In this document: positions 3,062 through 61,289 of the stretch, one piece after another
How the letters are laid out: each line of letters begins with the position of its first letter
Position numbering within the stretch: the stretch's first letter is position 1
IMG/VR virus record: IMGVR_UViG_3300027749_000082
Span: 18,118-82,117 of that record
DNA: 64,000 bases
From: a virus
Direction: 5' to 3' (one strand)
Notes under the pieces: generated by a model
Seen by the model: only the letters and a program-made list of their open reading frames with translations
Database searches by the model: none
Told to the model about the DNA's origin: nothing
Made by a program: the position numbers and the translations under genes

Positions 3062-3978
3062 AATGTATTATATAGTTCTAAATCAAACAATGTCAATCTA
3101 TGAAACACTTTACCGTTAAATGTATACTCTTTTAGCTTATACCCCCTATATTCTGGTGTATTATTTAATAATATAAAATTTCCTGCAGCAGCAACTACAT
3201 CTAAACATAATAACTCTTTCACCTTATTAAATTGATTACACACATCAGTAAGGATATTTTGATTATGTAAAATATAATCAGCAAACTTTAAAGTTACACC
3301 GTTCAAGTACATAGGTCTAAATTGGTTTAGCCTCGCTATTAAAGTAGTATTGCTACTAATACAAAAACCAAGACGCATACCAGTTAATAACCCCATTTTA
3401 CTAAATGTTCGAACTATAATAAGATTGTATGGTAGATTGTTTAAGTTAATTACTTTAATAGGGTTAATATATGCTTCATCAACAATTACATATTTATATT
3501 GCTTACACAATTCTAATATTTCATTAGTATTAAACGTGTAACCCGTGGGATTATGAGGAGATACAATATACAACCCCGTATGTGATATATCCTTATTTAA
3601 AGTAAGATCTAAAGAGAATTCTGTTTCAAAATTAAAGGGTATTTGTATTAAATCTTTATTATATAGTTTACAATAAAATGTAAATAATTCAAATGTTGGT
3701 AATGTAGTTACCCATTTATTGCAATCTAATGTTTCAATTAGAGTCTTTAAAACAAATTCAGATCCATTATTAACGTGTATATTATCACTAGTACAAGTTA
3801 TAGCTTGTGCTAAACGTTTAATTACAGTAAACGGTGATGCATAACTATAGATATCTAAAGCAGTTACCTTAACATTTTTTAGTACTATATTTATAAGTGA
3901 TGGGCACAAGCACTCATTTTTATCTAATCTAAGATTAGAATGTGCATATAAAATTGGGTTTCGATTCATTTTGATCAA
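3058..3978 (-). CDS. PLP-dependent class I/II aminotransferase (HisC/CobD-like)
   Basis: NGS, PTF, SPHNPTG, VDEAY and RTFSKMGLLTGMRLG (PLP lysine) motifs. Confidence 0.85.
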   Translation of the reverse strand: MIKMNRNPILYAHSNLRLDKNECLCPSLINIVLKNVKVTALDIYSYASPFTVIKRLAQAITCTSDNIHVNNGSEFVLKTLIETLDCNKWVTTLPTFELFTFYCKLYNKDLIQIPFNFETEFSLDLTLNKDISHTGLYIVSPHNPTGYTFNTNEILELCKQYKYVIVDEAYINPIKVINLNNLPYNLIIVRTFSKMGLLTGMRLGFCISSNTTLIARLNQFRPMYLNGVTLKFADYILHNQNILTDVCNQFNKVKELLCLDVVAAAGNFILLNNTPEYRGYKLKEYTFNGKVFHRLTLFDLELYNTL

Positions 3979-4555
3979 TATATCTAATTATTTCAGAAAG
4001 ATAAGATAATGTTTCATTAAACATAGGAGGATAAGCTTTAAGTACCTCTATAATACTATCTGTTGTTTGTAATAATGTTTGATATCTATCCTTTGCACGA
4101 TTAATTGCTAAAATTAAATTTTTACTTTCATACATATCTAAATCATCATCATTCTTAATAAAATCTAAATTAACGCTATATTCCCTTTCAACATTTAACC
4201 ATATATTTTCTTTAAGTTGTAATAGTGTGAGTTGATCGAGAGTATTAAATTTAAAACCTAAAGATCGTAAAGTATGTAATATATGATATATTTTAACAAC
4301 ATCATAAGCATTTGCAATTAAAATAACATCATCTTCATTAAATAAACTTTCCTCTGATAGTCTTTTTATGTGCTCAACCTTATAATTAAAATACGATAAA
4401 AATAAATCATTATATTCATAAAGTGTATAATGTAAAGGTAGTTCTATATTACAAATACTATTAGTAAATATATCTCTAAATATAATAGTGTTATTAGAGT
4501 TACTTATTAATTCCCCACGATATGTTATATTTTTAAGTATTAACTCAATATACAT
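3935..4555 (-). CDS. Hypothetical protein
   Basis: 206-aa ORF packed in a minus-strand operon; no motif recognised. Confidence 0.6.
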   Translation of the reverse strand: MYIELILKNITYRGELISNSNNTIIFRDIFTNSICNIELPLHYTLYEYNDLFLSYFNYKVEHIKRLSEESLFNEDDVILIANAYDVVKIYHILHTLRSLGFKFNTLDQLTLLQLKENIWLNVEREYSVNLDFIKNDDDLDMYESKNLILAINRAKDRYQTLLQTTDSIIEVLKAYPPMFNETLSYLSEIIRYIDQNESKPNFICTF

Positions 4556-17132: not shown

Positions 17133-18924
17133 TAATTATTTTATTAGTAAGGTTAGATATTTCGTAAAAATACGCGTACATAAAGCTTTCTAACGTATAA
17201 TTTTGCGATACAAAAGTTACATCATCTGTTTCATATAATGGATTCCATACTACATAATTAATTTGTGAAGATTCATACCCTGTATCAACACGTCTAGTAA
17301 GGATTCGCTTAACACCAATAATATTGAGTATATCGTTTGTTATTTGATTAAGATTAATAGTATCACCTAACTGTATATTAGAAAAATATGTATTAAATAT
17401 ACTTAAGATCTGACCTTTTAAAGAGGCACTATTAACCCGGGTATTAATATCACGCTTTATTACAAGATATGTATGATCTTTTAACGCTACCGATTCTAAC
17501 TCTCCTGCAACTTGTAATCCAAAGCTAAAAGCTTTATAAACAGGATCCATACACACTATTGATTGTGTAATATCTTTCTTTAAATTACACTCATTAGTTA
17601 ATAACTGCTTTTGAGAAGCATTTAAGTAGTTTGGTGTACGTTCATTTAATATAGTTGATATTTTAGGTACAGTAAACACATATACACTATTAAAGTTTGT
17701 TGATGGTGCAAAGAACACCTGATTAAACAATACTCTACAATCTTCATTAGGTCTATTAAGTCCTATTTTATAAAAATATGCAAGATAGTTTGTTGTAAAT
17801 TCTTCATTAGACAGAATATTTACAGACTTAATAATATTATTATAGTTTTTAGCAATAAAAGCTTTGTAATCACCTTGAGTTACTAATCTATCTTGTGTAG
17901 TAAACATTTTAGGTGCATTTTGCTTTATCTGATCTACAGTTTCAGCATCAGCAATAGGAGATGACTTACTGCTATTATTAGGAAATAAGTGTGGTAGATC
18001 GGTACCTACTACTAATCTAGTACCACTATCATAAAGGTACTGTGATATATCAATAAATGATGCTGAACTATATAAATTAATTTTTTGCTTGTTAAGAACA
18101 CCAGCACTTATCTCACCAGTAGCACCATCTGATAAAACGTAAAATATTTTTACTTGCTCACCTATTTGAGGCGCTTTACCTGTAACACCATTACCAAATT
18201 TAAATTCGTAATTACCGTTTTCGTTTAATCGTTTTTCATACCTTCTTGCATCAGATGATTCAAGATATAGTGATGATGTTTCTTTCCATTCGTACCACTT
18301 GCTATCATTATTGCTAAGTATAAAGACAGAAAAACTATTATCTGCTATAAAGCTCGTGCCATTAACACCTACTGTATTAACAAGTATATATGTCTCAAAA
18401 GTTTCACCTGTACTAATATATGTTGGAGCTTCAATAATAGATCCCTGCATTAGTGTACTATTATTAATATATAAAGTTTCTGTATTAGTTGTTGTTTTTT
18501 CAAACGAAATATCAGATATTAGTGTATAAGGTATACCGTTTGCATTAATAAAAGAAAAGCGAGGTAATAAATAACTACTTTGCGCAAGACCGCTATCTGC
18601 AGATAAGCTCAAAGTAACAAGAGATGTTTGTTGTCCTAGTGGCTTATAACCAAGTAGAGAGACAAGCTTATTAACATTTTCATAGAGTGATGCTGTGGTA
18701 AAATTACTTTCAGTTGATGTACTATTTAAATAAAATAGTAATACATGATACATATAAGCCACAACATCAATAAAAGCATTAATATTAGAACCTTCAAAGT
18801 TTTGATCTCTAAAAACTTGGCTTTCATTTAATCTAGCTATGATTAAGTTCTTAAGAGTTTCAGCCTCAAACGCTGTGTAAGCGTCTTTAGGTAAGTTAAA
18901 TTCTGTAAAGTTATTAATATTCAT
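17119..18924 (-). CDS. Baseplate wedge subunit, T4 gp6-like
   Basis: F.D.NFEGSNI..FIDVVAY, LGYKP, YEFKFGNGVTGKAP, ETVDQIKQNAP..FTTQDRLVTQGDY motifs. Confidence 0.9.
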   Translation of the reverse strand: MNINNFTEFNLPKDAYTAFEAETLKNLIIARLNESQVFRDQNFEGSNINAFIDVVAYMYHVLLFYLNSTSTESNFTTASLYENVNKLVSLLGYKPLGQQTSLVTLSLSADSGLAQSSYLLPRFSFINANGIPYTLISDISFEKTTTNTETLYINNSTLMQGSIIEAPTYISTGETFETYILVNTVGVNGTSFIADNSFSVFILSNNDSKWYEWKETSSLYLESSDARRYEKRLNENGNYEFKFGNGVTGKAPQIGEQVKIFYVLSDGATGEISAGVLNKQKINLYSSASFIDISQYLYDSGTRLVVGTDLPHLFPNNSSKSSPIADAETVDQIKQNAPKMFTTQDRLVTQGDYKAFIAKNYNNIIKSVNILSNEEFTTNYLAYFYKIGLNRPNEDCRVLFNQVFFAPSTNFNSVYVFTVPKISTILNERTPNYLNASQKQLLTNECNLKKDITQSIVCMDPVYKAFSFGLQVAGELESVALKDHTYLVIKRDINTRVNSASLKGQILSIFNTYFSNIQLGDTINLNQITNDILNIIGVKRILTRRVDTGYESSQINYVVWNPLYETDDVTFVSQNYTLESFMYAYFYEISNLTNKIIIEDE

Positions 18925-27515: not shown

Positions 27516-29144
27516 TTATGCTAATAAAGTCTGATTATTATAATCAGTTCTGTAGTTTTCAGGTGATGGGGTATTATATGAGTTAAAAGAGGCTCCAGAG
27601 CCACCACCTACTGGTTTTCTTACAAGTTGAACAAGTAATTCAATCATTGTATCTTGACGTTTAATCTGTTCAGATAATGCAGCTTTAGCAAACTTATTAT
27701 ATTCAGCAGTATTAGATACAAGTGTCTGCATATTATTATCACCGGTTGTGGTTAACGTGCCAGAGATTTCACTATTAACCTTCTTTTGTGTGCCTAATAG
27801 GTTCCACAATGCTTCGTTAATGTTATTAATATTTTTAATGGTCTTATCTACATCAAGATTGCCTAATATATTAAAATCTTTAACAGCTGCTAATTCTTTA
27901 AGAGCATTTGTTAGTTTTTCTATACCAGGTGCAGCTTTACCGAGTTCTATTATCTTATCAAACGGACTTTTTGCACCAAATAGTGAACCAATACCATCTA
28001 TTATACTACTAAAAAGACTACCACTACTAAACACTGCTAATCCCGCTCCTATAGCAGCTAAAGCTGGTCCTACAGCTAGCAAGACACTTACTGGCATATC
28101 TTTAAGCTTTACTAAAGAATCTGCAATTTTATCAAGAGCTGGCGCTGCAAGATTAGCTGCATATGCGAATGGTATAAGGGCAATACCAAGTAATCCAAGT
28201 GCAATAGCACCCATACCTATTAATTCAGGAATTGGTCCAGCACCTGCGACACCACCAATAACACCTAACCCAACTATAGCAGCACCAGCTATCTTCAAAA
28301 CTTTCCAATCCATTTTAGCAAACGGTTCTACAGCTTTTGATATACCCCATAATGCAGCATCCATAAGACCAAGCCCTAATGCGCCTAATGCAATATCTTT
28401 AAAGTTACTACCTATAAGTTTTCCTGCTACTCCTAATGCTGTTATAGCAACTCCTGCTTTTCCTAATGTCTCCCACCCTATACCTTCAAAAGGTTTAAGC
28501 CCCTTATCTACAAGAAATTCTAAAGCAACGGTAGTTGCACCTATACCAGCTGCTAGCTTAATCAAATTCCAACCTAATCCTTTAACCCCTTTATTAAGCA
28601 TATAAATGGTTAATATTGTACCACCTACTACAACACCAATTTTAAGTATAGTCTTCCAGTCTAAATTTTTGAAGGTAGTCATAACACTATCTATTAGACC
28701 ACCTACTACACCTTTTATTTTTTCTTTTAATTCTTTCGGTAGTAATGACCACCCAAAAACACCAAGAGCTGCAGCTCCGAGAGCGCCCAACATTGTTTTA
28801 ACAAAGTCACCCTTGTTGTCTTTTATATTACTAACCGCACTAACAACTCTATCTTTCATAGAACCTAAGGCTCTTATTGGTGTAATTGTCGACACTCTTT
28901 TAGCTACCGTGTCTTGCGCATACTTTCCTATCTCAACAATTTTACCAAATTCTTCTCCAAAGATTTTAGCTATTTTTCTAAGTCTGGATTGTTCATCAGA
29001 AGTTAAATTTGATTTAACTCTATTTTCTTCGTTATTAATAACACTAGAAGAATTAGCAGATTTTGAGTCTACACCTTTTGGCTCTGTTCTCCCTCTTAGG
29101 AGTGCAGACATAGTTTCTAAAACACCTAATTTATCATTAGCCAC
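27516..29144 (-). CDS. Tape measure protein (GTG start)
   Basis: Ala/Gly/Leu-rich amphipathic repeats with periodic Trp, in the tail operon. TAAATA 5 nt upstream of the GTG. Confidence 0.65.
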   Translation of the reverse strand: MANDKLGVLETMSALLRGRTEPKGVDSKSANSSSVINNEENRVKSNLTSDEQSRLRKIAKIFGEEFGKIVEIGKYAQDTVAKRVSTITPIRALGSMKDRVVSAVSNIKDNKGDFVKTMLGALGAAALGVFGWSLLPKELKEKIKGVVGGLIDSVMTTFKNLDWKTILKIGVVVGGTILTIYMLNKGVKGLGWNLIKLAAGIGATTVALEFLVDKGLKPFEGIGWETLGKAGVAITALGVAGKLIGSNFKDIALGALGLGLMDAALWGISKAVEPFAKMDWKVLKIAGAAIVGLGVIGGVAGAGPIPELIGMGAIALGLLGIALIPFAYAANLAAPALDKIADSLVKLKDMPVSVLLAVGPALAAIGAGLAVFSSGSLFSSIIDGIGSLFGAKSPFDKIIELGKAAPGIEKLTNALKELAAVKDFNILGNLDVDKTIKNINNINEALWNLLGTQKKVNSEISGTLTTTGDNNMQTLVSNTAEYNKFAKAALSEQIKRQDTMIELLVQLVRKPVGGGSGASFNSYNTPSPENYRTDYNNQTLLA

Positions 29145-31437: not shown

Positions 31438-31989
31438 TTATTGAGCAACAGGAGGATTAGTATAGTAGTGGTAAGCAATTGTAGCTGTAACGTCTACAGT
31501 TTGACCAGTACCTGCAGCTATTGAATATGAGATATTCTCAATATTTCTTATAGAAGCTCCAACAAGCTTATACGAACTAATTGGCTTAAGATCCTTATCT
31601 AATTGCGCTAATGTAATATAGTGTGTTTGATCTGGTGTACCATATTGACCTGTAGAAGTACTATCGTCAAATAATGCTCTTGAAGCAGTTTCAAAGTAAT
31701 TTCTAAGGCTACTAGCTGCATCAAGATAGAATACAATTTGATAACCTTCAGAACCTGGATATGTAACACCACCTGGAACATTAATGTTTAATCCCATATA
31801 AGGTACAGCAACATTACTAATATTTCTACCTGGAAGAGCAGCTGTCTTAGCATAGATTAATTGACCTTCTGTCATCGCAGGAACACCAGCAAGATTTAAC
31901 TCAGTTACTCTAAAAAGGAAATCTCTAGAGAAATCTCTATCTGCTGCTGTTTTATAGAAGTTTTGGATATTTTGGTTTACGCCGGCCAT
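31438..31989 (-). CDS. Tail tube protein, T4 gp19-like
   Basis: SRDFLFRV, AKTAALPG...VPYMG...PG, LAQLD, TIAYHYY; follows the sheath gene. Confidence 0.88.
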   Translation of the reverse strand: MAGVNQNIQNFYKTAADRDFSRDFLFRVTELNLAGVPAMTEGQLIYAKTAALPGRNISNVAVPYMGLNINVPGGVTYPGSEGYQIVFYLDAASSLRNYFETASRALFDDSTSTGQYGTPDQTHYITLAQLDKDLKPISSYKLVGASIRNIENISYSIAAGTGQTVDVTATIAYHYYTNPPVAQ

Positions 31990-32072: not shown

Positions 32073-34505
32073 TTAACCACCAATTAACTCTTGGAAGTTG
32101 GTATCGGTGCGAGTTGCGTAAAAATTTATTAAGATAAATTCAGCAGACTTAACAGGCTTTAAGTAAATATCTACTACTAATTCATTGTTATCGATAACAT
32201 CACCAGTGTTGTTACGGCTATCACATACAATAAGGTAATCATAAAGACCATCTGATTGTTTAACTCTCTCAAAGAAAGGTGTAAGTGTATTAACGACACG
32301 AGTTCTTGTGAATAGTGTATTATTCTCAAATAAGAAGTATCTCATTACGTCTCTCGTAGCTTTTTCTAAGTATAAGAAGCTTCTACGAACGTTAATTCTA
32401 TCGAAAGCACTTGGCTTTTTAAGAAGTGTCTTTTGACCGTATACAACAATACCTTGATCAGGTACACGTGTTACAGGATTAAAGTTAAACTTATAGAACT
32501 CATCACGCTGTCTTTGGTTAGGTGAAAGAGCAACATCAAGCGCATCATTAATTACACCGCGTGAATAACCAGCAGGCGCTGCCCATGGTCCTTGATCTGT
32601 ATCTGTTGATGCCATTCTCGCTGCTGCAAATCCTGAAGAAGGTACATAAATGTATAAGCCACTATATGCATCATATACTTTCATATAATTTGCAAATACA
32701 CCTGCATACGACGTATTAGTATTTTCAAATTGATGTCTAAGAGGCCAGTAAATGTGTTGTGAGAAGTTAAGACCAGGTATATTAATAACCTTTGTATCTT
32801 TACCTGTTACAAATATTTGACGAATAGGGTCAGCGATAAAGAATATATCACCTCTACCACCATCTTTTACTGGTCCGCAGAATGTATTAAATTGATTAAA
32901 GATTGTAGTGTAACTATCTCTTGCATTTGTAATAGTTAGATCATTTGATGTTCTAAGAGCTTCAATATCAGGAGCAGTCTTTGTATCATCAAAGTAAGTG
33001 AGACCAGTAGCACAAACTGTTGTCCATATAGTACCAAGACCACCTTCTGCTATAATATCGATATTAAAAAGCTGATCATTTCTAACACGCTCTAAAGCAC
33101 GACTAATCTTATCTGGTATATTACCAACACTCTTTGAGCTAATCTTAACAGCACCGTAAGCACCAAGCGGGAATAACGCATCACCGTAGCCAATTCCTGT
33201 AGCTGCTTGGAACTGCGCATATGTAACGCCGAAAGGAGCGTATGCTGCTTGTGCAGTTGAGAGTGCTGATGCAGAAAGACCAGATACAAGTAAGGTAGCA
33301 GTATATGTATTATTAATTGCTGATAATGAATTAACTAATTGTGTTGAAATAACACGTACCTTCTTTGACGGTGTACCATCTGGATTGAGTTGTATACCAT
33401 TGAAGTAATCGGAAATATATGGATTAACTAATAATTCAAGATTTCTCGAACCATTCTCAACATTTTCAAGGAAAAAGTTAACCGGCTTGCCACCGTTTTC
33501 ACTATTAATTTGTCTAGCATAGCCAATTGAACCATTATAACCTTCTTCGATAATATAATCTAAAGTTGTTGAATCATTAGCAAATACTGATTGTCTTAAT
33601 TTAAAGATACCAACATTAAGTGTATCGTCAAAGAATCTTGTACCAATATCATAATTAGTAATTTTTTCTTCCATCACTTGCGATACTGTATTAGTAGCAG
33701 GATTATTTCCATAAGCAGGTGTTGCTGTTAAGGAGAAAGCTAATCGGGATTTCGGAATACTATTATAAGCTGTAAGACCAGAAGTACCAGCAGACTGTGT
33801 AACAGTATAAGCAGTTTGAATACTATCATAATTAGAAGCAGGGTTAATATTTGTATTATCTGCTAAACCAACATAATAACCTTGATACTTACCGTCAATT
33901 GTTGTTTGTCCAGAATTGATTGCTATTACAGCAGCACCTGAAAGACTCTGTAGAGAGTTGAATGTTGTTAGTGCACTATTACTCCATTGCGAGAATAACG
34001 TACCGTTAACAAGGTTTGTGTAATCTGTTTGTGAGATATTAAACTGCGTTGGTTGTCCAAGCAAATATGTAGCACCTGATGCTCCTAAATAAGTAGTAGA
34101 AATATTAGTTGCAGATAATGTACCTGTACCGGAGAGTGGTGTGTTAGCACCAATACCTGATATAGCATTTGCAGCTACGATAGCTGGGTAAGCGAGAACA
34201 GATATAGAAGAACCAAATCCTTCACCTGTACCGTCACCATAAGGTAATCTGTTAATAAGTACATTAGCAGATGAATTAAGTGTTGCTTTTACAGTATGAT
34301 AGCAATATCTTTCTGCTGGTGTCTTTGGATTTCCGTAAATAGATTCAAATTCTGAAATGCTTCCTACGCTTAAAACCTCATCTGTTGGACCTTGATCTGT
34401 ATAACCTGTAATATAAACGGTTGTGCCGGCAGGTGTTGGTACTCTTAGAGATAAATCATTTTCCCTAATTTCAACACCTGGTGATTGGATTGTTCTTTTC
34501 GCCAT
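32073..34505 (-). CDS. Tail sheath protein, T4 gp18-like
   Basis: SPGVEIREND, PW.APAGYSRG, YGQKTL...SAFDRINVRR.F, FENNT.FTR, KPVKSAEFILINF. Confidence 0.96.
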   Translation of the reverse strand: MAKRTIQSPGVEIRENDLSLRVPTPAGTTVYITGYTDQGPTDEVLSVGSISEFESIYGNPKTPAERYCYHTVKATLNSSANVLINRLPYGDGTGEGFGSSISVLAYPAIVAANAISGIGANTPLSGTGTLSATNISTTYLGASGATYLLGQPTQFNISQTDYTNLVNGTLFSQWSNSALTTFNSLQSLSGAAVIAINSGQTTIDGKYQGYYVGLADNTNINPASNYDSIQTAYTVTQSAGTSGLTAYNSIPKSRLAFSLTATPAYGNNPATNTVSQVMEEKITNYDIGTRFFDDTLNVGIFKLRQSVFANDSTTLDYIIEEGYNGSIGYARQINSENGGKPVNFFLENVENGSRNLELLVNPYISDYFNGIQLNPDGTPSKKVRVISTQLVNSLSAINNTYTATLLVSGLSASALSTAQAAYAPFGVTYAQFQAATGIGYGDALFPLGAYGAVKISSKSVGNIPDKISRALERVRNDQLFNIDIIAEGGLGTIWTTVCATGLTYFDDTKTAPDIEALRTSNDLTITNARDSYTTIFNQFNTFCGPVKDGGRGDIFFIADPIRQIFVTGKDTKVINIPGLNFSQHIYWPLRHQFENTNTSYAGVFANYMKVYDAYSGLYIYVPSSGFAAARMASTDTDQGPWAAPAGYSRGVINDALDVALSPNQRQRDEFYKFNFNPVTRVPDQGIVVYGQKTLLKKPSAFDRINVRRSFLYLEKATRDVMRYFLFENNTLFTRTRVVNTLTPFFERVKQSDGLYDYLIVCDSRNNTGDVIDNNELVVDIYLKPVKSAEFILINFYATRTDTNFQELIGG

Positions 34506-36826: not shown

Positions 36827-37810
36827 ATGTCAAGATCAAAAAACGACTTCGCATCCATCGGAAATTTATATGGTGGTATGTTAAATGGTATCAAGAGTCA
36901 GCTCGTAGCTGAAGGAAAAATTGGACCTGCTGTTAAAACAGCTAAAACTAACCCAACTATTAAACCTGGTGAAATCGGCGATGTCGCACTTGCTCCAGAT
37001 AGAGGGCCTCGTACCACTGCTGGTTATTTACCAGCTAAGGTTGATAAAAAGACAATGTCTAAAAAAGACATTGATGATAACCTCTATAAAATCGATGATC
37101 TTTCATATGATGAGGATGAAGAGACAAAGAAAAAAACTAAAAAAACTGCTTTAAAGAAAGCTAATGTAGTTAAGGCTAAAAAAATGTCCGAAGAAGATGA
37201 AGAAGAACTTGTAAAAGAAAGTGGAAAAATCGCTAAGGAGAGACTAAATAACTTTATGAGAAGAAAATCGATTTTTGATAAACTTTACGAAAACGTTATG
37301 CAACCGGACGGCCGCCCTGAAGGCGGAGAGATGGATGATTCACAGGAACTTGATGCTCTCGGCATTGACGGTGAAGGTGACGAAATGGGTGGTGAGGATG
37401 AAGTAACCTTTACACTTGACCGTGCTACTGCTGAAAAGCTTCTTGATGTTATCGGTGCTGCTATGGGCCAAGGACACGAAGAAGGTGAAGCAGAAAATGA
37501 ATACGGTGGTGAAGAAGATTCTGGCGAATTCGGCGGTGAAGAAGACGAAGAAGGCTTCTGGGACGAAGACGAAGAAGAACTTGCAGGTGCCAAGGAATTC
37601 ACAAAGGAAGTTAACTTCGGTAAAAACAACAAGGTCAGTAATCTTAAGGTTCAAAACCAATATGTAACAGGTAGTTATACAGACAAGACGGGTGTAAGTG
37701 ATGAATATGGTCACTCACTCATTAACGCTAAGCAAGTTGGTATGGGCAAAGATCCTAAAGTCAAATCAGTACTTAAAAGCGCTGGTGGTAAGAAAGTGTT
37801 TGAAGTCTAA
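36827..37810 (+). CDS. Highly charged late protein (possible prohead core / internal head protein)
   Basis: Lys-rich and Glu/Asp/Gly-rich low-complexity blocks; has its own late promoter and terminator. Confidence 0.5.
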   Translation: MSRSKNDFASIGNLYGGMLNGIKSQLVAEGKIGPAVKTAKTNPTIKPGEIGDVALAPDRGPRTTAGYLPAKVDKKTMSKKDIDDNLYKIDDLSYDEDEETKKKTKKTALKKANVVKAKKMSEEDEEELVKESGKIAKERLNNFMRRKSIFDKLYENVMQPDGRPEGGEMDDSQELDALGIDGEGDEMGGEDEVTFTLDRATAEKLLDVIGAAMGQGHEEGEAENEYGGEEDSGEFGGEEDEEGFWDEDEEELAGAKEFTKEVNFGKNNKVSNLKVQNQYVTGSYTDKTGVSDEYGHSLINAKQVGMGKDPKVKSVLKSAGGKKVFEV

Positions 37811-37879: not shown

Positions 37880-38263
37880 ATGGTAACGTTTAGTGACTAC
37901 TTACTCGAATACACCAAGAATAAAGAAAAATCTTTATTCTTCGGTATAGCAAAAATGAAACATGGCAACAACGGTAAGGACTGGAATAGAGCTCATGAGA
38001 GAAAACACATTAATACTGTTACTAAAGAGTACAACCATAAGCACCCTATTATAAACAGTATATGCCAAGGTAAAGCAGATAATGTACCTATTACAGGTGT
38101 AAATCTTAATAATATATTAAAGCTTTATAGTATGATATTTGAACCAGGTCTTAAGACTATAGGTAACTCAGATGTTGAAATAGAGATGTTTGAGGATGAA
38201 GAAGGCAGACAACACGGTAGATTGAGAAATAAGAAAAAGAAAACTTTACCGTATGGCTTGTAA
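37880..38263 (+). CDS. Hypothetical late protein with capsid-targeting-like N-terminus
   Basis: MVTFSDYLLE resembles the T4 internal-protein leader MKTYQEFIAE. Confidence 0.5.
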   Translation: MVTFSDYLLEYTKNKEKSLFFGIAKMKHGNNGKDWNRAHERKHINTVTKEYNHKHPIINSICQGKADNVPITGVNLNNILKLYSMIFEPGLKTIGNSDVEIEMFEDEEGRQHGRLRNKKKKTLPYGL

Positions 38264-46603: not shown

Positions 46604-46861
46604 TTATTTCGCTAAGCTATTAATATGAGCTGTAACAGCAGTTAAGATATCTGCATTTGACCATTCAAGTGGTTTGTCATAGTTGTCTCCAGATAATTCA
46701 GTAAGAACAACTCTACCAAGACCTTGAATAAATACAGCTACTTCTTTTTGTGAAGGAATATCAACAATTCTTTCAATAGATACTGTTGTTGGAAGTGTTG
46801 TAGTAACAGCAGGTGATGTAACAACTACAAGTTCTGTAGGGAGTGTAATGTCTAAGCTCAT
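46604..46861 (-). CDS. Small fibre-associated hypothetical protein
   Basis: 85 aa; TATAAATA 5 nt upstream; own terminator. Confidence 0.65.
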   Translation of the reverse strand: MSLDITLPTELVVVTSPAVTTTLPTTVSIERIVDIPSQKEVAVFIQGLGRVVLTELSGDNYDKPLEWSNADILTAVTAHINSLAK

Positions 46862-49270: not shown

Positions 49271-51058
49271 TTATACAATAGTTAATACACCACCATTACT
49301 CCATATAGAACCTGTACCTAAACCATCGCAACTTGTAGGTACATTAGTAAGAACAAGAGTTGGTGCATATGCTGTATTAGCTGAGATAGCAGTAATATTT
49401 GTTCCAGCTATAACAGACGAGCAAGTAGCTGTAGAGCAAGTGCAATTACTCTTACCCCCTAAAATACTAGAATAATCTCCACTAGCTGTATTAGAACGAC
49501 CACCAGCTATATTAGAAAAATAACTACTAGCTGTATTACGAAAACCACCAGCTACATTAGAGTAACTACTAATTGCTGTATTACACCAACCACCAGCTAC
49601 ATTAGAGTAATTGTTACTAACTGTATTACATATACCACCAGCTATATTAGAATTATTAGCACTAACTGTATTACAACAACCACCACCTATACTAGAATAC
49701 GTACCTAAAGCTGTATTACAACAACCACCTCCCACTACACTCCAATTCCTAGCTGTATTACACTGACCACCACCTATAGCTCCATATCTACCTGATGTTG
49801 TATTGCAACTACCACCTGCTATAGTACCGTAACCAACAGCACTACAAGTCTTATTATAAGCACCACCACCTATTGTAGCATATTGACCACAAACTACTGT
49901 GTTACTAAGACCTCCTACAATTATTGAGTAAGTTGTATTAGTAGTAGTAGTTGTATTGCAACAACCGTTACCTATAAAACTATAATTACAACTAGCTATA
50001 TTATTACAACCACCAGCTATATTAGAAAAATAACCGCTAGCTGTATTACAAAAACCACCTAATACACTAGAAGCAAGACCACATGAAGCATTACAATACC
50101 CACCACCTATATTAGAGCAGTTACCACTAACTATATTAAACTGTCCACCAGCTACATTAGAATAACTACCATTTGCTGTATTACCACAACCACTACCTAC
50201 ACTAGAATATGCGCTTAGAGCTAAATTACTACAGCCACCAGCTATATTAGAAGTATTCCCACTAGCTGTATTAGAACGACCACCAGCTATATTTGAAGCA
50301 TATCCACTAGCTGTATTAAAACGACCACCAGCTACATTAGAGTAATTGTTACTAGCTGTATTTTGTCTACCTCCTGCTATAGTAGAGGCAAAACAACAAG
50401 AGTTATTAAAAGCACCACCGCCTATAGTTCCAAAATAACCGTTAGTTATGCAGTTAGTACTACCTCCACCTACAAAACTATAATTCGCTCCAGCGCAATT
50501 ATAACCACCACCACCAACAGTTGAACCCACAGCACCGCTAGCTATGTTACCGCAACCACCCCCTATAAAATTATAGATTCCATTACTAACTACATTTAAA
50601 GTTCCTCCTGCAATAACAGCTCCAACAGTACCATTACATATATTATTACTAATACCACTACCAATTATTGATTGTTGGCTACCGGTAATATTATTACAAC
50701 AACCAGCTACTATAGCACTATTCCATGTATAAGCACAGTTTGTTATAATATTGCAATAACCACCAGCTATTGAATTGCAACCTGTTGTAGGTAATGCATT
50801 ATTTGTACCTATTTGCAAATAATTTGCTGAAACTCCACCAGCAATACTTTGAGTAGTTGTAAAATAATTATTAGCAGTTTTAACAGCAAAATTATTACAC
50901 ACCGTATTAAAATTATTATTAGTTAAAAATATGCCTGAAAGATAAGGTGTGAGGGAAGCTAATGGCTCTTGCTTCGTTACGCCTACTTGAACAAAAGGTA
51001 TTAATTCATTGCCTGTAAAAGCAGTACCTAATGGAAGACATGAAATTTTAACGGACAT
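49271..51058 (-). CDS. Cys-rich fibre protein with long YadA-like 14-aa repeat array
   Basis: Roughly 30 GGxxNTASxxYSxI repeats with many Cys; N-terminal KISCLP...NELIPFVQ; C-terminal GSIWSNGGVLTI. Confidence 0.75.
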   Translation of the reverse strand: MSVKISCLPLGTAFTGNELIPFVQVGVTKQEPLASLTPYLSGIFLTNNNFNTVCNNFAVKTANNYFTTTQSIAGGVSANYLQIGTNNALPTTGCNSIAGGYCNIITNCAYTWNSAIVAGCCNNITGSQQSIIGSGISNNICNGTVGAVIAGGTLNVVSNGIYNFIGGGCGNIASGAVGSTVGGGGYNCAGANYSFVGGGSTNCITNGYFGTIGGGAFNNSCCFASTIAGGRQNTASNNYSNVAGGRFNTASGYASNIAGGRSNTASGNTSNIAGGCSNLALSAYSSVGSGCGNTANGSYSNVAGGQFNIVSGNCSNIGGGYCNASCGLASSVLGGFCNTASGYFSNIAGGCNNIASCNYSFIGNGCCNTTTTTNTTYSIIVGGLSNTVVCGQYATIGGGAYNKTCSAVGYGTIAGGSCNTTSGRYGAIGGGQCNTARNWSVVGGGCCNTALGTYSSIGGGCCNTVSANNSNIAGGICNTVSNNYSNVAGGWCNTAISSYSNVAGGFRNTASSYFSNIAGGRSNTASGDYSSILGGKSNCTCSTATCSSVIAGTNITAISANTAYAPTLVLTNVPTSCDGLGTGSIWSNGGVLTIV

Positions 51059-55734: not shown

Positions 55735-55983
55735 ATGTTTTGCGGTTGTGGTAGTATTGTAGAATCAGCGCGTGCTGATCTAAATTTAAGAACGTGTCGT
55801 ACATGTGCCTTTACAGGTCCTGATGTTCAACGACCGAAAGGTACAATGATCTATTCTCATAAAACTTCTGGTGAGATTGAGATTCATACGGCAGATAGTT
55901 GGCGTGAAAAAAAGAAGTACTATGTACCTAATGGTAATGGAAGGTCTTGTGTTAAGAACTTTAGTAAGAATATTGCAGTTTAG
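55735..55983 (+). CDS. Small zinc-finger protein
   Basis: CGC...R...CRTC. Confidence 0.55.
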   Translation: MFCGCGSIVESARADLNLRTCRTCAFTGPDVQRPKGTMIYSHKTSGEIEIHTADSWREKKKYYVPNGNGRSCVKNFSKNIAV

Positions 55984-56756
55984 TTTTTTCTTTGAGATGA
56001 AGCTCTACACCTTACGCTGCAATAAGTTTTTTGTTTAAGAACACCCGGTTTACCGTATATTAAATTATCACACTGAGCGCATGGTTTGGATATTATTAAA
56101 GCAAATCTTGTTGGTGGTTTAGATTTACCCTTCCTAGAGTTATCTGTACATTCCTTTGAACAAAATTTTCTTTTTTCAATTATATTTGGTGTGTTAATCA
56201 TTAACTCCTTACAACATTCACACCTTTTTTGTATACGTCTTTGTTGTGACTTACTAGAACAAGCAGTTGAGCAATAAGAACGTCCTTTAGACTGTGATGG
56301 TATAATCTCAAAATCTTGATAGCAGCCCTTACACTTTAAAATTGCTTTATTTTTTTGACTGTCAACTTTACACTGTATACTACAAAAAGATCTATTACTA
56401 CATTCTAAAGATTTAAAAGTAATTCTACAATGTTTACAAGTTGTGTCTATACGTGGTACATATAATTTTCTTCTTAACCAGCCATACAATTTATTTCTTC
56501 TCCAGTACTTACTTACCTTTGTATCTTTTGACATTACATCACAAGCTCTAACTAAACGTAGATTGTTAGGGTATATCTTAACTAGTAACTGATGAGCTAC
56601 ATAATGTTCTTCTGGTGTAAGAGATACTAAATTTTCAGGTTCATCACTACCACCCATACATCGTGGTATAATATGATGTATTTCTTTATAACCTTCAATT
56701 ATACCTCTTACCTGACCACGCTTCACCAGCTTTTCATATATTAATTTGTATTGCAT
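55980..56756 (-). mobile_element. Free-standing HNH homing endonuclease with four zinc-ribbon repeats
   Basis: EIHHIIPRCMGGSDEPENLVSLTPEEHYVAHQLL, then four CxxC...(F/Y)CSxxC units; inserted against the local gene direction. Confidence 0.88.
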
Positions 56757-56813
56757 TTCAAATATATTTATTCAAATAAACTTGATCTCAATATATATTA
56801 CAATAAATAGCTT

Positions 56814-56884
56814 AAAGCCTAGTAGGTCTATATTACTCTGTATTGCATTTCAACTTACTAAGTAAAAACCTACTAGGCTTTTCT
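56814..56884 (+). ncRNA. Candidate hairpin antisense sRNA against the HNH mRNA 5' end
   Basis: 14-bp perfect inverted repeat (56814-56827 / 56868-56881). The loop carries a 23/25 copy of 56737-56761. TAAATA at 56804-56809 upstream; T-run after the stem. Confidence 0.6.
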
Positions 56885-56885
56885 C

Positions 56886-56913
56886 TTGCAGTTAAGAAAA
56901 ATTAAACTATAAT
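56886..56913 (+). promoter_or_regulatory. Sigma70-like promoter
   Basis: TTGCAG-16-TATAAT; ATG 6 nt downstream. Confidence 0.6.
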
Positions 56914-56919
56914 ATAAAA

Positions 56920-57648
56920 ATGTCTATGTTCGATTCAATTAAAATAGAGTTACCGCTTCCAAGTCTTCCACAAGGGGTACTTGATCGTTGGATACTAAAA
57001 GGTGAGCCAATTACTTCAAGTGAAGTTGTCTTTCAAACAAAAGATACACCTAACCAAGGAATGTCTCTTTATAACATCGATGCATCCGGGCAGCTGTTTA
57101 TTCAAAACGTTGAAGGTTATTGGGAAGAACCAGAACCTGTCGAAGAGGATGTTATTAACGATCCTGATAAATTAGTACCTTATCCAAGCTTCCTAACAGC
57201 TCTTGGTAACTATAAAGAAACGTCACGTTCTTGGGAAGAAGTAGACTTTACAGGATCAATTAATTTGTACGAATCGTACGAACATGCAGATAAACCTAAA
57301 TATGGTGATGAACTTTATAATCATGAAGATGATCGTTTCCGATATATGTCAGGTTGGGTTGAATATCAGGTACAGTTAGTTAAGGGTAAGGTCCAGAGTG
57401 AAGTTATTCTTGTTAGTCATGAATTACCAATTCGTTATAATGATGAAGAGCTTGCAGCAAAAAAAGAAAGTTGGGCAATTCAACGTGCAAAGGATGTAGA
57501 AGTTTATAAAGAAAATCGTAGAAAGTATCCTTCTGCTGAACAGAAGCTTATTGATTCAATTTATAAAATATCAAAAGATGCTGAAGTACTTCAACAAATT
57601 GATGAGTATCGTGAAAAATTTGACATTTGGTATACAGATGAAAACTGA
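56920..57648 (+). CDS. Hypothetical phage protein
   Basis: MSMFD...FQTKD...FTGSINLY...WVEY pattern, recalled from phage hypotheticals. Confidence 0.7.
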   Translation: MSMFDSIKIELPLPSLPQGVLDRWILKGEPITSSEVVFQTKDTPNQGMSLYNIDASGQLFIQNVEGYWEEPEPVEEDVINDPDKLVPYPSFLTALGNYKETSRSWEEVDFTGSINLYESYEHADKPKYGDELYNHEDDRFRYMSGWVEYQVQLVKGKVQSEVILVSHELPIRYNDEELAAKKESWAIQRAKDVEVYKENRRKYPSAEQKLIDSIYKISKDAEVLQQIDEYREKFDIWYTDEN

Positions 57649-60896: not shown

Positions 60897-61289
60897 ATGA
60901 AGTACATTGTATTGCTATTTGCTATTATCTTGAGTTCGTGTGCTCCTAATCTTCCGCAGAATCCATTCCCATGGATGGAATCATGGGGACAGAATGATTG
61001 TCTTCCAACAGCAATTTGCTTCAAACAGGCACTTGGTACTGCTTGTGCGTGGAGTCATGTTATCTGTTATACCTATAAGGATGCCGCAAACAAAGGGCAA
61101 CTCACTGGTCATGCTATTGTAGCGTATATGTACCCAACAGGTCAAAACCAACTATGGACATATGACTATATGGGTAGTTATCGTGTAAGAGCCTATCTCA
61201 CTGACCCTATTGTCATTGCTCAGTTAGCTGAAATTGAGCGTGGACGTCCAATGAATACCGTAACTCAAGCTGAGTTTGTAGATAAGTGA
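60897..61289 (+). CDS. Lipoprotein with possible transglutaminase/papain-like Cys-His-Asp triad
   Basis: MKYIVLLFAIILSSC lipobox; NDCLPTA, GHAIV, TYDY. Confidence 0.6.
   Translation: MKYIVLLFAIILSSCAPNLPQNPFPWMESWGQNDCLPTAICFKQALGTACAWSHVICYTYKDAANKGQLTGHAIVAYMYPTGQNQLWTYDYMGSYRVRAYLTDPIVIAQLAEIERGRPMNTVTQAEFVDK

Follow-up and report, generated by a model that had tools for sequence, protein, structure and literature searches.

A hairpin carrying a copy of the nuclease start in a mobile homing endonuclease cassette of an uncultured T4-like phage: a candidate antisense RNA gene

We analysed a window of 64,000 nucleotides (nt) of viral DNA (positions 18,118 to 82,117 of record IMGVR_UViG_3300027749_000082), which belongs to an 82-kb IMG/VR fragment from an uncultured T4-like phage. 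In this window, a minus-strand gene for an HNH homing endonuclease is preceded by a hairpin whose loop contains a copy of the start of that same gene. The anatomy of this hairpin, its membership of a mobile cassette, its recurrence before diverged HNH genes and the co-variation of its stem and loop were all observed directly. We consider it probable, with moderate confidence, that the hairpin is a small gene whose antisense RNA restrains the nuclease. This interpretation had first been put forward in a reading of the window made from its letters alone, hereafter the sequence-only reading. It is supported by the recurrence of the hairpin, by loops that track their own genes, by stem co-variation, by a conserved promoter box and T-run, and by predicted cognate pairing.

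The following elements of the window are central to the analysis:

55980-56756, minus strand: HNH homing endonuclease gene, an open reading frame (ORF) of 258 amino acids (aa) with its ATG at 56756-56754
56814-56881, plus strand: hairpin with perfect arms of 14 base pairs (bp), 56814-56827 and 56868-56881, and a 40-nt loop
56829-56853, plus strand: antisense segment of the loop, whose plus-strand RNA is the complement of the HNH mRNA 5' end
56737-56761, minus strand: target, comprising the 5' end of the HNH mRNA and the start region; it is the direct repeat partner of the loop segment and spans -5 to +20 of the ATG

The hairpin arms, AAAGCCTAGTAGGT at 56814-56827 and its exact complement at 56868-56881, were found both by reading the sequence and by a repeat search. 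Loop positions 56829-56853 are identical to 56737-56761 at 23 of 25 sites, and the last 15 nt match exactly. Inverted repeat, loop length, copy and target position all agree exactly with the description in the sequence-only reading. The real HNH start (56754-56756) lies 57 nt outside the hairpin, and the loop copy is direct, not inverted. Folding, proposed earlier as a check, gave a stable plus-strand hairpin (-26.3 kcal/mol, z = -4.7 against shuffled sequences), in which the predicted 13-nt apical loop contains the anti-start CAU. It is the sole inverted repeat with a stem over 12 bp and a loop of 20-60 nt in the window. A 15-mer repeat by itself is not very rare, as at least two matches occurred in 8 of 100 shuffles when two mismatches were allowed. 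No Rfam 15 family reached its gathering score with the hairpin; the best score was a chance-level 27.5 bits to an unrelated family with a cut-off of 80.

Related HNH genes were collected from IMG/VR and from metagenomes, and 247 distinct start regions were located; the loci of the closest protein relatives, P0003-P0026 (44-78% identical), stand outside these counts. The DNA upstream of each gene was searched for exact repeats of that gene's start (-12 to +24). Such copies, 13-18 nt long, were present in nine of the first 163 loci, versus a maximum of 11 nt in 815 shuffled controls, and shorter copies in the 163 loci were not in excess over the controls. In all, 11-12 distinct hairpin loci were found among the 247 unique HNH starts (window/L003, L164, L086, L165, L166, L168, L169, L230, L087, L311, L301 and L188), and their proteins are 37-97% identical to the HNH protein of the window. 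The design that recurs is a perfect stem of 10-15 bp, imperfect in L169, around a loop of 32-50 nt. Every loop includes an exact 10-18 nt copy of the gene's own start, always with the ATG. Extended beyond the exact blocks, the copies reach 15-25 nt, and they are located 23-60 nt upstream of the gene on the other strand. The copied sequence differs between lineages and always matches the cognate gene. The comparison thus bore out the expectation that an upstream inverted repeat would recur before homologous HNH genes with a loop that follows each gene's own start (11-12 loci).

A chance origin of the start copy was rejected on the grounds of its recurrence in relatives and of copy lengths beyond those of the shuffled controls. 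Recent duplication or gene conversion as the sole cause was also rejected, since the identity persists at saturated divergence and the repeat is short, with unrelated flanks. A metagenome scan yielded no close relative of the cassette and added two distant hairpin loci, L086 and L087. A further scan of IMG/VR with the L087 protein and a scan for the stem pattern gave no new members; two extra pattern matches were unrelated palindromes. At L188, two HNH genes lie within 5.5 kb of each other and only one of them has the hairpin. In L330 and L322, a tandem duplicate of the promoter stretch TAAATAATAGTAT stands before the HNH gene in place of a hairpin.

The stem sequences differ between loci, and homologous stems are recognisable in three clades (window/L164/L086, L165/L166 and L087/L311). 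Since MAFFT was unable to align stems across clades, compensatory changes were counted by script clade by clade. This revealed seven both-sided compensatory changes, to which reading of the alignment added one. No stem change broke a pair, and two one-sided changes give G.U pairs on the antisense strand only.

The module is also confined to one gene arrangement. The HNH gene is divergent from its upstream neighbour in all 12 hairpin loci, compared with 33 of 144 loci without a hairpin. This layout leaves no upstream read-through transcript that could form a hairpin in cis. Together with the near-zero leader described below, this fits the earlier argument that a cis hairpin is unusable here.

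The signals that could produce two opposing RNAs lie between the hairpin and the gene and directly after the stem:

56765-56772, minus strand: late-promoter-like box of the HNH gene, AATAAATA, 8 nt ahead of its ATG
56802-56809, plus strand: late-promoter-like box AATAAATA that faces outward 4 nt ahead of the stem and is predicted to drive the antisense RNA
56879-56887, plus strand: T-tract TTTTCTCTT, directly after the stem
56815-56887, plus strand: predicted antisense hairpin RNA of about 70-75 nt, from the geometry of box, stem and T-tract

The element TATAAATA is the late-promoter element of T4-type phages (PMC2677866; PMC2988022). About ten genes of the window have a (T)ATAAATA box exactly 5 nt before the ATG and no Shine-Dalgarno sequence, and many of these are large ORFs in a virion-type block. 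Examples are:

32073-34505, minus strand
36827-37810, plus strand
37880-38263, plus strand
31438-31989, minus strand
27516-29144, minus strand
46604-46861, minus strand
49271-51058, minus strand
60897-61289, plus strand

Considering that these boxes stand exactly 5 nt before the ATGs of late genes, we placed the transcription start at box end + 6, a rule derived from the leaderless late genes of the window. By this rule, the HNH mRNA starts at 56759 with a 3-nt leader, and the RNA of the opposite strand begins on the second base of the stem, at 56815. The late mRNAs of this phage appear to be leaderless as a rule, unlike those of T4 itself, which may hint that the host translates such messages well. 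The nearly leaderless state proposed for the HNH mRNA thus appears to be a rule for the late genes of this phage and not a peculiarity of the HNH gene. The promoter hexamers named by the sequence-only reading were likewise found at their given positions. A sigma-70 reading of TTGATC-16-TAAATA on the plus strand was rejected, as the pair failed a consensus scan; a T4-type late box at 56802-56809 is the better reading. The T-tract after the stem is a possible intrinsic terminator tail and probably a leaky one, so that the antisense RNA may read through into the gene at 56920.

Loci with long spacers (L168, L086, L164 and L188) share a semi-conserved motif, tCAACTGTTTgAYTAAATA, directly upstream of the HNH late box. 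Its variant in the window is GATCAAGTTTATTTGAATAAATA at 56773-56790, and TTGATC is the reverse complement of this motif. The motif may extend the promoter or serve as a binding site.

The promoter signals recur with the hairpin. On the antisense strand, all 11 loci have an xxTAAATA box that precedes the stem by 4-14 nt, and in all 11 a sense late box stands before the HNH gene, 40-50 nt downstream of the hairpin. Directly after the stem, the first 6 nt contain a mean of 4.1 T on the antisense strand versus 1.8 on the HNH-sense strand; the antisense count is greater in eight of the 11 loci, tied in two and lower in one. In about 1.3 Mb of fetched DNA, only six units combined the box, a large-loop hairpin and a strong T-run, and all six are hairpins of this set. 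Across the 11 loci, the predicted HNH transcription start lies 3 to 9 nt before the ATG, and the copied block begins 0 to -2 nt from that predicted start in every one of them. The position of the block is less variable relative to the transcription start (standard deviation 0.77) than relative to the ATG (1.70; range -4 to -9).

Pairing between loop and mRNA, another check suggested by the sequence-only reading, is predicted to be cognate-specific and to begin at the first nucleotide of the message. In silico, each of the 11 loci gives a duplex that begins at mRNA nt 1. The loop-mRNA duplex of the window covers mRNA nt 1-24 at -22 to -23.5 kcal/mol, or -11.5 kcal/mol after opening costs. Cognate duplexes across the loci reach -19 to -29 kcal/mol, and -10 to -18 after the opening costs of both RNAs. 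Non-cognate pairs average -2.4, with cross-reaction confined to close relatives. The position of the copied block and these duplexes both point to RNA-RNA pairing; neither a DNA operator nor a relic would be expected to stop at the first base of the message.

The hairpin is also part of the mobile cassette, as comparison with two other fragments, L003 and L002, revealed. The cassette and its flanking genes in the window are:

55927-56884 (end up to about 56895), no strand assigned: mobile cassette tract, near-identical to L003 (IMGVR_UViG_3300005805_000573)
55735-55983, plus strand: 82-aa flanking gene, convergent with the HNH gene with a 4-nt overlap; no family match
56920-57648, plus strand: 242-aa flanking gene, 3' of the hairpin and divergent from the HNH gene; no family match

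L003 has an HNH gene whose protein is 97% identical to that of the window at the same site, while the neighbouring proteins are just 50-60% or so identical. The tract shared by the two is about 960 bp long and about 97% identical by blastn and MAFFT, and comprises the last 55 nt or so of the 82-aa gene, the HNH gene, both promoter boxes and the hairpin. It ends just beyond the hairpin, about 3 nt past it by the flank boundary and at most about 14 nt past it by the L003 alignment. The L003 hairpin is 100% identical to that of the window. Between the two, no differences were found in the 134 noncoding nt at 56757-56890, versus about 20 in the 777-nt HNH ORF (about 2.6%). The L003 gene starts with GTG (L003 position 3001) and has GAA as codon 4, while its loop copy is unchanged. 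Both start-region changes are A-to-G in the mRNA, so that G.U pairing with the antisense loop is still possible.

The last 55 nt or so of the 82-aa gene (55927-55983) are nearly identical in the window and L003, whereas the rest of that gene is about 70% identical. As judged from this pattern, the shared 3' end is a co-conversion tract, which suggests a cleavage site near the 3' end of the 82-aa gene. L002 contains a different, 218-aa HNH protein with a different C-terminus (3230-3886, minus strand) at the same site between the 82-aa and 242-aa genes. Its cassette has late-like boxes on both strands (3887-4000) and no hairpin, and its flank boundary, ttgcaag|, is identical to that of L003. These occupants indicate that the site is a hotspot for homing endonuclease insertion. 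Because L002 has another HNH gene and no hairpin at the same site, the hairpin of the window arrived with this nuclease and was not a resident terminator. The suggestion that the hairpin travels with the mobile nuclease is thus confirmed by the tract shared with L003. An empty allele of the homing site was not found.

We propose the following mechanism. The HNH cassette would contain two back-to-back T4-type late promoters. From the inward promoter, a nuclease mRNA would start about 3 nt before its AUG, without a Shine-Dalgarno sequence. From the outward promoter, an RNA of about 70-75 nt would start at the base of the 14-bp stem and form one hairpin followed by a U-tract, with some read-through into the next gene. 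The loop of this RNA would be complementary to mRNA nt 1 to about 24, the start codon included. By pairing with the 5' end of the mRNA, it would block ribosome loading on the near-leaderless message, as RNA-OUT does with RNA-IN in IS10, and the duplex could also be exposed to RNase III. The outcome would be low nuclease output.

Several points weigh against this proposal. The RNA itself, its ends, its pairing in the cell and its negative effect are predicted from the DNA. Hairpin energies favour neither strand, one inner U.G extension in the window forms on the sense strand only, and the mismatches between loop and start have no bias to wobble-compatible changes. The T-run is good in six of 11 loci, moderate in the window and weak in four. 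A 40-nt loop is unusual for an intrinsic terminator, which has a G+C-rich stem, a loop of 3-8 nt and a U-run, and a scan for the terminator consensus at the plus-strand stem and U-rich tail of the window, with its 40-nt loop, gave no match. The RNA may be the 5' leader of a longer outward transcript, and a late-like box faces outward in the hairpin-less L002 cassette as well. The two RNAs would both be driven by late-type promoters, for which the timing logic is not obvious. Finally, the module is present in just about 5% of the sampled relatives and in few lineages, about six of them independent. None of the eight Mob-type HNH genes of cultured phages that we examined carries it, and no relative of the regulatory region was found in cultured phages. 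The probability that we withhold from an antisense RNA gene falls mostly on variants in which the same RNA is contained in a longer transcript.

One such variant, which we judge unlikely, is that the outward late promoter mainly drives the flanking gene and that the hairpin is a stabilising or attenuating 5' leader, the promoter offsetting the polarity caused by a cassette that runs against its operon. At the usual 5-nt distance, the 242-aa gene at 56920 indeed lacks a late box, the HNH gene always runs opposite to its neighbours, and both the outward-facing box of L002 and the weak T-runs of several loci suit a leader. That the loop reproduces and follows the start of its own nuclease gene in every lineage is left unexplained by a leader, and six loci have good T-runs directly after the stem. 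Since this explanation keeps the anti-start loop on a longer RNA, it concerns the 3' end and the main job of the RNA more than the pairing. The start region and its copy could also be duplicate operators for one protein, either the HNH protein itself or a translational repressor, acting on DNA or RNA, with the hairpin arms presenting the second site. Autorepression of I-TevI through an operator resembling its homing site is established (PMC2988022), and the two copies here are in direct orientation. We nevertheless find this improbable. The copied sequence is wholly different between lineages, so that the specificity of the protein and both sites would have to change each time. Moreover, the copy overlaps neither promoter box, the block ends at the predicted transcription start without a reason for a DNA operator to do so, and the conservation of the opposite-strand box and T-run is left unexplained.

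Three further explanations concern the other strand, termination and the protein. Read in the HNH sense, the loop copy begins with an ATG that opens a mini-frame (MQYRVI-stop in the window), and the fold of this strand equals the antisense fold in stability. A sense read-through RNA could therefore present a decoy start that titrates ribosomes or couples translation to the downstream gene. We give this little credence, considering that the cassette ends about 3 nt past the hairpin and so has no sense promoter upstream, that the flanking genes run the other way, making sense read-through unlikely, that the mini-ORFs vary from 2 to 15 codons without conserved length, and that the sense late box lies downstream of the hairpin. 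A hairpin serving solely as a terminator or insulator, which stops plus-strand transcripts from the upstream operon from running antisense through the HNH gene, would have the right orientation, position and T-run for the flanking operon, with the identity of the loop as a relic. A relic would decay. Because 13-18 nt of identity are kept among proteins 37-60% identical and with differing starts, we conclude that the start copy is maintained by selection. Termination also does not need a large loop, and the box directly before the stem is conserved, which makes this explanation very unlikely as well. It is most improbable of all that the nuclease binds the hairpin RNA as a guide or partner in locating its DNA target. 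HNH domains do occur in RNA-guided nucleases, and the RNA and nuclease gene are always adjacent here. The variable loop, however, matches the interior of the element itself, which is absent from an empty homing site, so that it cannot direct homing, and the protein has zinc-ribbon repeats of its own that probably bind DNA.

The proposed antisense RNA is closest in mechanism to RNA-OUT of IS10/Tn10, a stem-loop RNA of about 70 nt that pairs with the 5' initiation region of the transposase mRNA and blocks ribosome binding (PMC5006887). The predicted RNA would likewise be a stem-loop of similar size that belongs to a mobile element and is aimed at the start of the element's own nuclease mRNA, and here too a loop is predicted in silico to pair with the mRNA 5' end and initiation region. 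RNA-OUT is encoded in cis and overlaps RNA-IN by 35 nt, whereas the promoters here are divergent and the predicted RNAs do not overlap. Also unlike IS10, the complementarity is a displaced copy of 13-25 nt in the loop, and the element is a homing endonuclease cassette with T4-type late boxes.

In layout, the closest systems are divergent type I toxin-antitoxin modules (RalR/RalA, TisB/IstR-1, ZorO/OrzO and ShoB/OhsC), in which an adjacent, non-overlapping small RNA has 16-23 nt of complementarity (PMC4041452). The hairpin locus likewise has an adjacent, non-overlapping candidate small RNA gene with 10-25 nt of complementarity, and is especially similar to RalR/RalA. RalR is a prophage DNase, a 16-nt repeat pair was the first clue to RalA, and RalA pairs within the coding region and needs Hfq (PMC4041452). 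Unlike for RalA, the pairing predicted here covers the mRNA 5' end and start codon, emanates from a hairpin loop and belongs to a homing element of a lytic phage. It is plausible that the nuclease is toxic when unrepressed.

Described controls of homing endonucleases comprise cis hairpins that hide the ribosome-binding site combined with late promoters, reliance on host promoters or promoter choice, and autorepression (PMC2988022). Cis hairpins with a late promoter are found in T-even phages for I-TevI, I-TevII, I-TevIII, segB and Aeh1 mobE (PMC2988022), and hairpins upstream of metagenomic endonuclease genes have likewise been read as cis control (PMC2677866). The window resembles these in having a late promoter near the start of the homing endonuclease gene, a stable hairpin nearby and presumptive control at translation initiation. 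The T-even hairpin lies on the mRNA and hides its own ribosome-binding site, with the late promoter inside the hairpin. Here, the hairpin is upstream of the sense promoter, with the sense late box 40-50 nt downstream of it, and the real start lies outside, where a direct copy is unable to pair with it in cis. In the T4-like cyanophage S-PM2, an antisense RNA linked to a homing endonuclease gene was detected by experiment: CfrI, of about 225 nt, overlaps the endonuclease gene and psbA in cis and has no known function (PMC2984593). CfrI has no hairpin-loop copy. The hairpin loci differ from all of these systems in combining a displaced target copy in a loop, the 5' end of a near-leaderless late mRNA and a homing endonuclease cassette. 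We found no description of antisense hairpin control of homing endonuclease genes.

Phage homing endonucleases are textbook examples of tightly restrained selfish genes. If our proposal is correct, a dedicated, trans-pairing hairpin RNA moving together with the gene would add another layer to this control and would show how it can be achieved when no leader is available to fold. The loci would then form a natural set of short orthogonal RNA-target pairs acting on leaderless mRNAs, and would tie phage homing elements, in mechanism, to both IS10 and type I toxin-antitoxin modules. A bolder extension, which we hold to be doubtful, is that the cassettes are mutually orthogonal nuclease/antisense pairs whose RNA acts in trans as a specificity-bearing immunity factor in mixed infections. 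Each lineage would have re-coded both the 5' end of its leaderless mRNA and the matching loop. The RNA would then silence a nuclease of the same type on a co-infecting genome, or set a copy-number threshold as in the multicopy inhibition of IS10. Were this so, homing elements and phage genomes would be in conflict over antisense specificity.

The nuclease itself belongs to the free-standing Mob-type HNH homing endonucleases, as indicated by its HNH motif and family similarity, and its variable presence between conserved genes, with a co-converted flank, also fits the Mob type. The gene is oriented opposite to both of its neighbours. The N-terminus of the protein contains a Mob-type HNH domain and matches PHROG 655, 'homing endonuclease', with E = 3e-42, while the Pfam HNH match of 20.2 bits lies slightly below the gathering cut-off of 21.4. 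A tblastn search with the protein matched annotated homing endonucleases in many T4-like phages. Family alignment A1 shows an invariant HH...N...H core. In the same alignment, four to five zinc-ribbon repeats, CxxC...FCSxxC, make up the C-terminal half; these repeats had no match in a Pfam search and are probably the DNA-binding module of the protein. In the window, the tandem repeats, CxxC...(K/R)(K/R)(F/Y)CSxxC, are encoded at 55983-56450. They are found throughout the family, in which a shorter form of about 211 aa also exists.

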